From a virus (taxonomy: Duplodnaviria > Heunggongvirae > Uroviricota > Caudoviricetes): a stretch of 15,307 nucleotides of DNA. Numbering within the stretch: the stretch's first letter is position 1; each line of letters begins with the position of its first letter. The DNA lies in IMG/VR virus record IMGVR_UViG_2617270953_000003, positions 1-15,307 of that record. One strand, 5' to 3'. The notes beneath the pieces were generated by a model. The model was not told where the DNA came from. It did not search any database and worked only from the letters and a program-made list of their open reading frames with translations. Made by a program: the position numbers and the translations under genes. Below are positions 7,795-11,740 of this stretch, piece by piece.

Positions 7795-8511
<717 letters not shown>

Positions 8512-8518
8512 TTAAATC

Positions 8519-8584
8519 TATCACCGCAAGGGATAAACTTCTAACACCGTGCGTGTTGACTATTTTACCTCTAGCGGTGATAAT
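8519..8584. promoter_or_regulatory. OR3-OR2-OR1 operators with divergent pRM (minus) and pR (plus) promoters
   Basis: OR3 tatcaccgcaagggata (8519-8535), OR2 taacaccgtgcgtgttg (8542-8558), OR1 tacctctagcggtgata (8566-8582); pR -35 TTGACT (8556-8561) and -10 GATAAT (8579-8584) with 17-bp spacing. Confidence 0.9.
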
Positions 8585-8608
8585 GGTTGCCTGTACTAAG
8601 GAGGTTGT

Positions 8609-8809
8609 ATGGAACAACGCATAACCCTGAAAGATTATGCAATACGCTTTGGGCAAACCAAGACGGCTAAAGATCTCGGCGTATATCAAAGCGCGATTAA
8701 CAAGGCCATTCATGCAGGCCGAAAGATTTTTTTAACTATAAACGCTGATGGAAGCGTTTATGCGGAAGAAATAAAGCCCTTCCCAAGTAACAAAAAAACA
8801 ACTGCATAA
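8609..8809 (+). CDS. cro: Cro repressor, lambda type (66 aa)
   Basis: Sequence matches my recall of lambda Cro apart from about two conservative substitutions; AAGGAGG RBS. Confidence 0.95.
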
Positions 8810-8816
8810 GTAACAC

Positions 8817-8862
8817 CGCTCTTTTCACAATGGACATTCGTCCTACGTCGCTGACAAAGCGA
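8817..8862 (+). promoter_or_regulatory. nutR: boxA-like CGCTCTTTT (8817-8825) and P22-type boxB tcgct-gacaa-agcga (8848-8862)
   Basis: Same GACAA-loop, 5-bp-stem hairpin as nutL; located between cro and the cII-like gene. Confidence 0.65.
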
Positions 8863-8892
8863 GCCCCAAGATATCTGACCAACTAAGGCCAT

Positions 8893-8908
8893 ATGCGTTT
8901 CCACGCAT
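8893..8908 (+). terminator. weak hairpin (atgcgt-ttcc-acgcat) in the tR1 position
   Basis: 6-bp stem and 4-nt loop with a poor T tail; lambda tR1 is Rho-dependent, so a role here is uncertain. Confidence 0.25.
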
Positions 8909-8946
8909 ACCTTTCAACTAACTATTCACTATTGGAAAATTAACAA

Positions 8947-9243
8947 ATGACACAAGCAAGTTATAGCAAGCCAACACAGCGAGAAATTGATCGCGCTGAA
9001 ACTGATTTACTCATCAACCTGTCAACGCTTACCCAGCGCGGTCTGGCAAAGATGATTGGCTGTCATGAATCGAAGATAAGCAGAACGGACTGGAGGTTTA
9101 TTGCTTCGGTCTTGTGTGCTTTCGGAATGGCATCAGACATCAGTCCGATTAGCAGGGCTTTTAAGTATGCATTGGATGGAATCACAAAGAAAAAATCCCC
9201 GGCCGCCACCGAGGATTTTAAGCAAATTGATATGCAATTCTGA
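8947..9243 (+). CDS. cII: CII-like transcriptional activator (98 aa), not the lambda allele
   Basis: Helix-turn-helix region ...GLAKMIGCHESKISRTDW... and C-terminal KKKSPAATEDFKQIDMQF parallel lambda CII, but overall sequence is divergent. Confidence 0.7.
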   Translation: MTQASYSKPTQREIDRAETDLLINLSTLTQRGLAKMIGCHESKISRTDWRFIASVLCAFGMASDISPISRAFKYALDGITKKKSPAATEDFKQIDMQF

Positions 9244-9275
9244 GGTCATTACTGGATCAATCTACAGGAGTAATT

Positions 9276-9437
9276 ATGACAAAACGTCGTAAGAAATACC
9301 AGGAAAAAGAAGAGATTCGACACCCTGATTCACCTGAGGGATTAGTGGTAGCCGCAGCAAATAACAGGGCGTTCGCAGAGCGCCTTGTTGGTGTTTACAG
9401 ACTAGCCAAAGTAGGAGTGAAACATGGGCGTCGTTAA
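9276..9437 (+). CDS. small basic ORF (53 aa) between cII and the replication gene
   Basis: Hand-translated MTKRRKKYQEKEEIRHPDSPEGLVVAAANNRAFAERLVGVYRLAKVGVKHGRR; CAGGAG RBS 5 nt upstream of the ATG; 3' end overlaps the replication-gene start by 14 nt. Confidence 0.35.
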   Translation: MTKRRKKYQEKEEIRHPDSPEGLVVAAANNRAFAERLVGVYRLAKVGVKHGRR

Positions 9438-10314
9438 GTTAGCTGATTACAGGCATAACCCTGTACAACATCAGGAGGCATCCAGTATGGGGTATGTCTC
9501 TATACACCGCCAGTTTATGGACAGCAGGCTCTATAAGGACTCTCAGGCAGTACATCTTTGGCTTCACTTAATCCTCAAGGCTAATCACGAATCTACTGTC
9601 GTCAATACGGATATCGGTCCGATAACTGTTGATCGCGGTCAGATGATAACTGGACGCCCGTCGCTGGTCAGAGAAACATTCATCCCCGACAACAAAGTTC
9701 GGAGCTTATTACGGACTTTTGAGTCGAAAGGTATGCTTAATATTTGCTCGATGGGGAAGAAATTTAGCCTGTTTACAATCGTTAAATATGACGATTTTCA
9801 GGCAAAAAATTGTCCAACGGTTGTCCAACAGTTGTCCAACGCAAACACCAGTAATGGTGCGGCTCTCAGCGGAGATTGTCCAACGGTTGTCCAACAGTTG
9901 TCCATAAACAATAATATAAATAATATCTCTAATACTGACGTATTAGAGAGTGCTACAGCAGACAAAAAGTCTGACAAGAAAAAACCTTCCGTCAGCTGTC
10001 AGGATGTTGTCGATGCTTACCACGAAATCCTTCCTGAAGCGCCAAGAATCCGCGCACTGAATGACAAGCGTAAAAACCAGATCCGAACGTTCTGGCGCAA
10101 AGCCGGAGTGATAACCCGCCAGCTTGACGGACATGGGTTCACGATGCAGGACTGGAGAAATTATTTGAGCTACGTAGGCGAAAATTGCCGATGGATGTTC
10201 GAAGAGCGTCCAAACCATCAACGCGGAACTGTCTGGCACAAAAAGGGATTTGATTTCCTGCTTAACGATAATACCTACCTGAAAGTTCGTGAGGGTGAAC
10301 ACGATGACCGATAA
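9424..10314 (+). CDS. replication initiator (O-like, non-lambda allele) with the origin inside the gene
   Basis: AGGAG RBS; O-type N-terminal region; iteron array embedded in the coding sequence (encoding repeated CPTVVQQLS); followed by a DnaB-family helicase gene. Confidence 0.8.
   Translation: MGVVKLADYRHNPVQHQEASSMGYVSIHRQFMDSRLYKDSQAVHLWLHLILKANHESTVVNTDIGPITVDRGQMITGRPSLVRETFIPDNKVRSLLRTFESKGMLNICSMGKKFSLFTIVKYDDFQAKNCPTVVQQLSNANTSNGAALSGDCPTVVQQLSINNNINNISNTDVLESATADKKSDKKKPSVSCQDVVDAYHEILPEAPRIRALNDKRKNQIRTFWRKAGVITRQLDGHGFTMQDWRNYLSYVGENCRWMFEERPNHQRGTVWHKKGFDFLLNDNTYLKVREGEHDDR
9810..9950. repeat. origin iterons: two copies of a 3 x TTGTCCAAC array (9810-9840 and 9876-9906) plus AT-rich tract (9906-9950)
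   Basis: ttgtccaacGGttgtccaacAGttgtccaac occurs twice about 66 bp apart (last unit of the second copy is ttgtccata), followed by aaacaataatataaataatatctctaatactgacgtattagag. Confidence 0.8.
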
Positions 10315-11740
10315 TTTTTATGCGCCGCCCCATAGCATCGAGGCAGAGCAGGCGGTGATTGGTGGATTGCTTCTGGATGATGACAGCAGTGAGCGCGTCC
10401 AGAAGGTTCTGGCGATGCTGAAGCCTGATTCATTTTACAGCCGGCCACACAAAATCCTTTTCGAAGAAATAACCAGAATGCACCGGGAGCAAAAGCCAGT
10501 AGATGGCCTGACGCTTTTCGATGAACTGGAGCGTAAATCGTTAACTGTGTCTGTTGGCGGTTTTGCTTATATCGCTGAGATCGCAAAGAACACGCCAAGC
10601 GCAGCAAACATCGTTGCCTATGCAATGCAGGTTCGTGAAACCGCAATGGAACGCTACGCCATCAACCGCATGACTGAAGCGACGGAATTGCTCTATTCCC
10701 GCAACGGAATGACTGCAACGCAGAAGTACGAAGCTATTCAGTCGATTTTCACGCAACTGACAGACCATGCAAAAACCGGATCGCGTCGCGGCCTTCGTTC
10801 ATTTGGTGAGGTCATGGAAGACTGGGTTAGCGACCTTGAGAAGCGATTTGACCCATCAGGCGAACAACGGGGAATGAGCACAGGGATCCCATCGCTGGAC
10901 AGGATGCTGTCACCGAAAGGTCTGGTGAAAGGCTCTCTGTTTGTCATTGGCGCTCGCCCTAAGATGGGGAAAACGACGCTATACAGCCAGATGGCAATCA
11001 ATTGCGCAGTGCATGAGAAAAAGCCCGCTTTGATGTTCAGCCTTGAAATGCCAGGTGATCAGATACTGGAAAAACTGGTAGGGCAGAAGTCTGGTGTTAA
11101 CCCGAATATTTTTTACCTTCCGGCGACAAATGACGCTGATGACGGCTATCAGGGTGATTACGATGGTGACTTCAACAGGGCGATCGAAACAGCCAATCGC
11201 TTGAGTGAAATCGACCTGCTTTACATCGACGACACGCCGGGATTATCTCTGGCTCAAATCGTCAGCGAAAGTCGTCGAATCAAGCGAGAAAAAGGATGTG
11301 TTGGCATGATTCTGGTCGATTACCTGACACTAATGACCGCTGAGAAGGCCGATCGCAACGACCTTGCTTACGGCATGATCACCAAAGGACTGAAGAACCT
11401 TGCCAAAGAGCTTGATTGTGTTGTTGTGCTTCTGACACAGCTTAACCGCGCACTGGAAAGCCGAACCAATAAACGCCCATTACCAAGTGACTCCCGAGAT
11501 ACAGGGCAGATTGAACAGGATTGCGATTATTGGGTTGGGATCCATCGTGAAGGTGCTTTTGATGACAGTGTTCCACCTGGTGAAACCGAACTAATCCTTC
11601 GTCTCAATCGTCATGGCAATACCGGCACGGTGTATTGCATTCAGGCAAATGGAGCTATTTATGACACAGACCAACAGTCTGCTGAAATGCGCCGCCGTGA
11701 ACGCGAGGAACCGCAGTCCAAGAAGAAAGGAGGATTCTGA
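10304..11740 (+). CDS. DnaB-family replicative helicase (P22 gene-12-like), 478 aa
   Basis: N-terminus ...FYAPPHSIEAEQAVIGGLLLD... is the classic DnaB start; Walker A GARPKMGKT; ATG at 10304 overlaps the end of the upstream gene. Confidence 0.9.
   Translation: MTDNFYAPPHSIEAEQAVIGGLLLDDDSSERVQKVLAMLKPDSFYSRPHKILFEEITRMHREQKPVDGLTLFDELERKSLTVSVGGFAYIAEIAKNTPSAANIVAYAMQVRETAMERYAINRMTEATELLYSRNGMTATQKYEAIQSIFTQLTDHAKTGSRRGLRSFGEVMEDWVSDLEKRFDPSGEQRGMSTGIPSLDRMLSPKGLVKGSLFVIGARPKMGKTTLYSQMAINCAVHEKKPALMFSLEMPGDQILEKLVGQKSGVNPNIFYLPATNDADDGYQGDYDGDFNRAIETANRLSEIDLLYIDDTPGLSLAQIVSESRRIKREKGCVGMILVDYLTLMTAEKADRNDLAYGMITKGLKNLAKELDCVVVLLTQLNRALESRTNKRPLPSDSRDTGQIEQDCDYWVGIHREGAFDDSVPPGETELILRLNRHGNTGTVYCIQANGAIYDTDQQSAEMRRREREEPQSKKKGGF

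Follow-up and report, generated by a model that had tools for sequence, protein, structure and literature searches.

A conserved 53-codon gene of the HK97 gp53 family overlaps the replication initiator start in a lambda-like phage early region

A 53-codon reading frame (ORF53; 9276–9437, plus strand) of the window, which is the whole 15,307-nt stretch of viral DNA analysed here, is judged from sequence comparison to be a genuine protein-coding gene under purifying selection, and its product is a member of the HK97 gp53 family (PHROG 1331). It appears likely, with a probability of roughly 0.6, that ORF53 is the first early-right replication cistron, that it is coupled to the initiator gene, and that it makes a trans-acting basic two-helix protein of 6 kDa.

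The window corresponds to the early region of a lambda-like phage or prophage, of which HK106, mEp234 and mEp506 are the closest relatives (96–97% identity across about half of the window). A repressor-like ORF of 237 aa is located on the minus strand (7795–8508), and the near-identical left flank of HK97 carries a 714-nt cI at the same position. It is followed on the plus strand by a 66-aa cro-like ORF at the position of cro, as in HK97 (8609–8809), the cII gene (8947–9243), ORF53, the gene of a 296-aa, O-like replication initiator with a P22 gp18/DnaD-like N-domain (9424–10314) and a DnaB-like helicase gene assigned from the ORF list and family matches (10289–11740). The placement of ORF53 between cII and the initiator, as originally proposed, was confirmed by a Pfam Phage_CII match upstream and a phrog_345 match (E 2e-85) downstream. 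Inside the initiator gene, a family of direct repeats with 11-nt spacing (9809–9907) is arranged as two clusters of three 11-bp repeats, TTGTCCAAC(G/A)G, and is followed by A+T-rich DNA. These iterons and the adjoining A+T-rich DNA are likely to constitute the replication origin, and the equivalent position is annotated as rep_origin in Sf6 gene 43 and ES18 gp59. The same repeats also yield the repeated CPTVVQQLS peptide of the initiator.

ORF53 starts at ATG 9276, ends at TAA 9435–9437 and encodes 53 aa with the sequence MTKRRKKYQEKEEIRHPDSPEGLVVAAANNRAFAERLVGVYRLAKVGVKHGRR. A Shine-Dalgarno sequence, AGGAG (9266–9270, plus strand), is located 5 nt 5′ of the ATG, and six Lys/Arg residues fall within residues 3–11, in agreement with the good ribosome-binding site (RBS) and the basic N-terminus attributed to ORF53 in the original prediction. 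All diverged homologues retain a Shine-Dalgarno sequence 5′ of the ATG (AGGAG, GGAG or GAGG). A 53-codon ORF in a gap of 180 nt is by itself not beyond chance, and the reality of ORF53 therefore rests on comparative evidence.

The protein matched phrog_1331 with an E value of 2.1e-37, residues 1–53 aligning on profile positions 1–53 of 53, and ORF53 is therefore a member of the HK97 gp53 family. HK97 gp53 (as determined by tblastn) and the Sf6 gene 42 protein (gp42) are 98% identical to it and equal in length, followed by epsilon34 gp49 and g341c gp44 (96%) and ES18 gp58 (92.5%). The homologues of HK97, Sf6, ES18 and epsilon34 all share the length of ORF53, are likewise situated between cII-like and O-like genes and display the same 14-nt overlap with the initiator gene. 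The window allele differs from HK97 gp53 and Sf6 gp42 by a single residue (V46 in place of A46), and the V46 allele was also found in three IMG/VR contigs. In total, 97 phage records encode gp53, and its DNA is present in 594 of the 5,426 complete E. coli genomes (approximately 11%), in which PGAP calls a hypothetical protein; the homologues in HK97, Sf6, ES18, HK633 and others are annotated as ‘hypothetical’ or ‘function unknown’. The gene had been taken as unannotated, which does not hold: it is in public records as HK97 gp53, Sf6 gp42 and PHROG 1331, its annotation dates back to the HK97 genome, and Hayes et al. reported its slot in 2012 as part of the layout cII-oop-‘orf’-O-P (PMC3349717). 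This arrangement of a cII-like gene, oop, the small ORF and an overlapping O-like initiator gene is alike in HK97, HK633, Sf6, ES18, an Erwinia phage and the 100 loci analysed below. The gp53 family represents a well-conserved small protein that heads the replication operon in a large proportion of the prophages of E. coli, Shigella and Salmonella, Stx phages among them. The 90%-identity cluster that contains the window's protein also holds ‘terminase’ fragments, which are unrelated in sequence; this looks like a database artefact of clustering, and a terminase identity was rejected.

The comparative set consisted of 100 loci, namely the window, annotated phages, 12 diverse genome contigs and 80 IMG/VR contigs, with hosts including Escherichia, Salmonella, Enterobacter, Citrobacter, Cronobacter, Erwinia, Edwardsiella, Yokenella and Chimaeribacter. 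These loci yielded 21 distinct DNA versions of ORF53, down to 67% amino-acid identity, and the frame is open in all 21, every indel being in-frame. Nei-Gojobori dN/dS values between ORF53 and its diverged homologues were 0.08–0.25, and the mean pairwise diversity in the core of the gene was 0.15, 0.06 and 0.44 at codon positions 1, 2 and 3, respectively. In the same alignment, pN/pS was 0.27 in the ORF53 frame, whereas the two shifted frames had values of 1.5 and 2.4 and dozens of stops, and none of the three reverse frames is open. Near-identical alleles differ by four synonymous changes and one non-synonymous change, nine residues are invariant across homologues of 67–100% identity, and only one truncated copy was observed among approximately 128 loci. 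The frame conservation on which the coding status had been made to depend is thus found in 21 of 21 DNA versions, and since the amino-acid sequence is under purifying selection, the suggestion that ORF53 might be only the leader region of the replication operon is rejected.

The ORF53 start is embedded in a conserved 33-bp lambdoid ‘boundary’ sequence, ACTGGATCAATCTACAGGAGTAATTATGACAAA (9251–9283), identified from its sequence, from Hayes et al. and from the Sf6 record, in which it is annotated as ‘bsq5 boundary sequence’. Hayes et al. described it as 33 nt conserved among 23 lambdoid phages, with an ATG that starts lambda O, P22 orf48 or HK97 gp53 (PMC3349717), and the boundary pattern was detected in at least 119 IMG/VR contigs. 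This sequence holds the Shine-Dalgarno and ATG of ORF53 on the plus strand as well as the 5′ end of oop and the –10 element of its promoter on the minus strand. The oop-like antisense RNA gene (9188–9265, minus strand; assigned by homology, with deduced ends) abuts the Shine-Dalgarno of ORF53, and its terminator hairpin was located by a terminator scan on the minus strand at 9219–9192, inside the 3′ end of cII. The HK633 and HK629 records label the stretch homologous to the window oop as ‘similar to lambda oop’, and oop-like hairpins are found upstream of all diverged gp53 homologues. The –10 element, CATAAT, is the complement of 9273–9278 and lies over the start codon of ORF53, the placement that Hayes et al. 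gave for lambda and P22 (PMC3349717). An Rfam search of 8500–10500 matched no family, oop-like RNA included, and a simple promoter scan did not detect the oop promoter.

Three stretches of ORF53 are frozen at synonymous sites, namely codons 8–11, codon 50 and codons 53–56. Codons 8–11 (TACCAGGAAAAA, 9297–9308), in which the synonymous sites are completely frozen, are located approximately 32–43 nt ahead of the start of the oop RNA, which is encoded on the opposite strand, and a matching TACCAGG occurs at equal offset in unrelated orf48 genes, even in those of Klebsiella phages; these codons probably belong to the –35/upstream part of the oop promoter. Codon 50 (GTG), in the region of the initiator Shine-Dalgarno, displays no synonymous variation, and the synonymous diversity of codons 53–56, which are read in two frames, is near zero. 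Other signals account for part of the nucleotide conservation of ORF53: at its 5′ end the oop promoter, in its middle a possible hairpin and at its 3′ end the initiator overlap.

This hairpin would be formed by a 12-bp palindrome, AACAGGGCGTTCGCAGAGCGCCTTGTT (9363–9389, plus strand), that covers codons 30–38 (N-R-A-F-A-E-R-L-V) and is predicted for most ORF53 homologues. Pairing was retained in 88% of cells across 18 sequences, versus 38–48% in slid controls, with compensatory double changes at two to three pairs; a G-C pair was replaced by U-G or C-G four times, always with the rare CGG codon. The covariation score was reached by none of 500 shuffles, a value to which the tool's caveat on related sequences applies. 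Because the sequences are related and the A-F-A-E-R peptide is intrinsically palindromic at the codon level, these data are only suggestive, and the element may be a conserved structure of the RNA or DNA, or may simply result from the A-F-A-E-R codons. It is not an intrinsic terminator, as the terminator scan was silent here and the T-rich run after the stem is lost in diverged homologues, nor does it correspond to the lambda ‘ice’ inceptor, which sits in cII, to the left of oop.

The 3′ end of ORF53 and the start of the initiator gene share 14 nt, ATGGGCGTCGTTAA (9424–9437), read in two frames as initiator start and ORF53 stop. This is the overlap that had been noted, and the end of ORF53 falls 11 nt past the initiator ATG. 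The initiator ATG is positioned at the ORF53 end minus 14 in 100 of 100 loci, including homologues of only 67–75% identity. Its Shine-Dalgarno, AGGAG (9413–9417, plus strand), is situated within ORF53 codons 46–48, 6 nt before ATG 9424, and GGAG or GGGG is conserved at this position across homologues. The presence of the overlap and of an internal Shine-Dalgarno in all 100 loci fits translational coupling, as had been proposed for the overlap. Coupling by unmasking of a sequestered RBS was not supported: the mean unpaired probability was 0.44 for the initiator RBS and 0.48 for that of ORF53 itself, and the structures predicted around the former vary between homologues. If coupling operates, its mechanism would accordingly be re-initiation after termination, or the delivery of ribosomes, and not unmasking; moreover, as the initiator has a good Shine-Dalgarno of its own that is not consistently sequestered, coupling may be dispensable.

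Initiator residues 1–10, MGVVKLADYR (9424–9453), or a close variant thereof accompany ORF53 in the 100 loci and precede two unrelated types of origin-binding domain, those of lambda O and of P22 gp18. The initiators linked to orf48 start with the similar MSNISNLAEAR, and lambda O starts with MTNTAKILNFGR. Given that the N-terminus of lambda O is the model N-motif-1 ClpX degron (PMC12723719), MGVVKLADYR may by analogy be a degradation tag common to lambdoid initiators. A second good start site is present inside the initiator gene, with ATG 9487 (M22) behind AGGAGG at 9473–9478, and tblastn alignments to the P22-type gp18 of ST64T and SE1, the N-terminal ~26 residues of which are diverged, begin at residue 23 of the window initiator. 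The conservation of residues 1–21 argues for the longer form, and a shorter isoform may be made as well. In two IMG/VR contigs with a gp53 identical to that of the window (L016, 2660–5000, and L140), the initiator-helicase segment is inverted right after ORF53, so that only 12 codons of the initiator remain (MGVVKLADCWHS); these are rearranged and presumably defective prophages.

The same slot is occupied in P22 and HK022 by orf48 (Pfam DUF2740, PF10872; PHROG 1913), which uses the same boundary Shine-Dalgarno and ATG as ORF53. The two genes share their first 11 codons (MTK....YQ-E/D-K), which derive from shared DNA, and both occur with the same initiator and helicase types and encode small two-helix proteins. 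They differ in length, orf48 having 48 aa and an 8-nt initiator overlap (ATGAGTAA or GTGAGTAA) compared to 53 aa and 14 nt for ORF53. The 8-nt overlap holds even in Klebsiella phages with initiators only 43–48% identical, and the orf48 peptide itself stays conserved at identities as low as 43%. The two proteins are not homologous past residue 11: profile-profile comparison with hhalign gave a probability of 1.7%, and the alignment was confined to the first 11 residues. ORF53 also had no match in Pfam, PF10872 included, at E up to 0.1. The AlphaFold2 model of orf48 is a helix-loop-helix (helices 7–25 and 28–44, pLDDT 81). The ‘tail protein’ label of PHROG 1913 is surely a misnomer, which has spread into annotations such as that of CobraSix gp55, and in two of the literature matches the name ‘orf48’ refers to a different gene or is only mentioned in cloning. 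Small ORFs between a cII-like gene and a replication protein are also found with remoter gp18-like initiators, as in CobraSix and ZF40.

Structural modelling of gp53 in AlphaFold2 gave a moderate mean pLDDT of 69, with basic, disordered residues 1–20 followed by predicted helices at 21–29 and 31–49. No match was obtained for gp53 in Pfam, NCBIfam or PADLOC, a profile search of PDB sequences returned nothing at E up to 10, and Foldseek found no match for the gp53 model in PDB or BFVD, nor for the orf48 model in PDB. Against 1.84 billion representative proteins, the gp53 profile gave 25 matches, essentially one narrow enterobacterial family. The sole outlier, an 852-aa TPR-like repeat protein (P0077), in which the profile matches eight TPR-like repeats (…GDSPEGKFPVASNNRGNALGKLGRY…), was treated as a chance or low-information match; gp53 residues 18–42 accordingly resemble a single TPR-type helix-turn unit, probably by chance. 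A ribbon-helix-helix fold (Arc/Mnt/CopG) was rejected given the lack of a strand in the AlphaFold2 model, the disorder of residues 1–20 and the absence of Foldseek (PDB/BFVD) or Pfam matches. A J-domain ‘HPD’ motif was likewise rejected, since H17, P18 and D19 all vary among homologues, as was membership of the lambda CIII (FtsH inhibitor) family, for which no Lambda_CIII match was seen in Pfam at E up to 0.1. A literature search on gp53, orf48, PHROG 1331 and DUF2740 found no functional study.

Across the 100 loci, the initiators behind gp53 are lambda-O-like (HK97 gp54 type) in 53 and P22-gp18/DnaD-like, the type of the window, in 45; the N-domain of the ES18 initiator is nearly identical to that of lambda O. 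Several types of cII gene lie upstream, and one locus lacks cII there; the initiator gene is followed by the gene of a DnaB-like helicase, except in ES18-type modules, which have a T7-gp4-like primase-helicase. A scan of IMG/VR with the boundary sequence gave 75 distinct loci. In 24 of these the boundary ATG opens an intact lambda O and in one a disrupted lambda O, the next gene being lambda P in each case; it opens gp53 in 27 (one of them rearranged and not scorable) and orf48 in 19, followed by a phage helicase, where identifiable in the case of gp53, and never by lambda P. The remaining four loci have other arrangements with various next genes, one being a gp53 truncated at 22 codons. In this sample, therefore, all 46 small-ORF modules carry a phage helicase (DnaB-like or primase-helicase) where identifiable and none has lambda P, and all 25 lambda-P modules are devoid of a small ORF, 24 of them with O intact from the boundary ATG. 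Initiator N-domains are shuffled across both small-ORF and lambda-P modules. The tight association of gp53 with helicase-encoding modules in these sequences is striking, with linkage and shared ancestry as confounding factors; the lambda O-P module may effectively be one lineage.

According to the preferred reading, ORF53 is probably translated from the conserved boundary Shine-Dalgarno and ATG that lambda uses for O, and ribosomes finishing gp53 would be delivered to, or re-initiate at, the initiator start, so that initiator synthesis would be tied to a strong upstream start site. We infer this coupling because the architecture is kept across the 100 loci and is mirrored by orf48. The 6-kDa product, with its basic disordered arm and two predicted helices, would then act in trans. 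Near-identical gp53 is found alongside varied cII genes, initiators of two families and helicases of two types, and never with lambda P, suggesting that its partner is less likely to be a specific initiator domain than a host factor or a feature common to helicase-encoding modules. Our best guess, and only a guess, is that gp53 assists replication initiation or helicase recruitment as an accessory factor; the small regulator suggested originally is likewise a guess.

It is also possible, though rather unlikely, that gp53 acts in trans on a target outside replication, either in the lysis-lysogeny decision (by affecting the oop/pO promoter or the stability of CII, similar to the 54-aa lambda CIII) or in host takeover or anti-defence. 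The gene adjoins cII and oop, the size and predicted helical character of gp53 resemble those of small phage regulators, and specific contacts with the initiators and helicases are made less likely by the variety of these proteins alongside near-identical gp53. However, gp53 travels with the initiator start rather than with cII, which varies in type and is missing at one locus, and it is absent from all sampled lambda-P modules despite the shared boundary sequence; nor was there a match in Pfam, Lambda_CIII included, or in PADLOC.

Less probably, gp53 and the DUF2740 orf48 are alternative occupants of an obligatory slot in modules that encode their own helicase and supply a missing accessory, in combination with a regulatory mRNA hairpin. 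If so, the small protein might aid helicase recruitment or loading, or set the level or stability of the initiator, and would stand in for lambda P and the host chaperones.

A pure leader cistron, in which translation of ORF53 feeds the initiator start or keeps the mRNA open and the peptide itself is functionless, as in IncFII and IncI plasmids, appears improbable. The stop/start overlap and internal Shine-Dalgarno kept at all loci are in line with it, as is the filling of the slot by the unrelated gp53 and orf48 with similar overlaps, since the slot rather than the protein could be what matters. On the other hand, a functionless peptide is difficult to reconcile with the purifying selection on ORF53 and its nine invariant residues, or with the conservation of the orf48 peptide at 43% identity; furthermore, no conserved structure masks the initiator RBS, and the antisense oop runs away from ORF53 and leaves its RBS uncovered. 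A fortuitous ORF, the conservation of which comes from the oop promoter, hairpin and initiator RBS only, would account for the frozen codons 8–11 over the oop –35 region (common to orf48), the frozen codons 50–56 over the Shine-Dalgarno and overlap and some of the covariation at 9363–9389, but it is largely refuted and very improbable, as third positions vary freely between these elements (0.44) and second positions hardly at all (0.06), and the frame stays open through in-frame indels in 21 of 21 versions with the other five frames closed.

The coupled, trans-acting gp53 cistron, our preferred reading, may be compared with three known arrangements. With respect to lambda, the Shine-Dalgarno and ATGACAAA of ORF53 are homologous to the lambda O start, both within the 33-bp boundary sequence. 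In the lambda record, cII ends at 38653 and O starts at 38686, and Hayes et al. stated that lambda ‘is naturally missing’ the orf (PMC3349717), both of which agree with the original prediction that lambda has no gene at this position. In lambda the boundary ATG opens the 299-aa initiator, whereas in the window it opens the 53-codon gene and the initiator follows 148 nt on, in another frame. With respect to orf48, the slot and start are shared and the proteins are unrelated beyond the first 11 residues. The third comparison is with plasmid replication operons, in which leader peptides, such as those of IncFII tap-repA1 and of IncI-alpha and IncB repY-repZ, are translationally coupled to the rep genes; the leader ORF ends at or just past the rep start codon, and translation of rep can depend on translation of the leader. 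Similar to the IncFII tap type, ORF53 terminates overlapping the initiator start, by 14 nt at all loci. Unlike the tap type, its peptide is constrained, as evidenced by purifying selection and the nine invariant residues, and unlike in these plasmid systems, no conserved structure masks the initiator RBS, and the nearby antisense RNA does not target ORF53.
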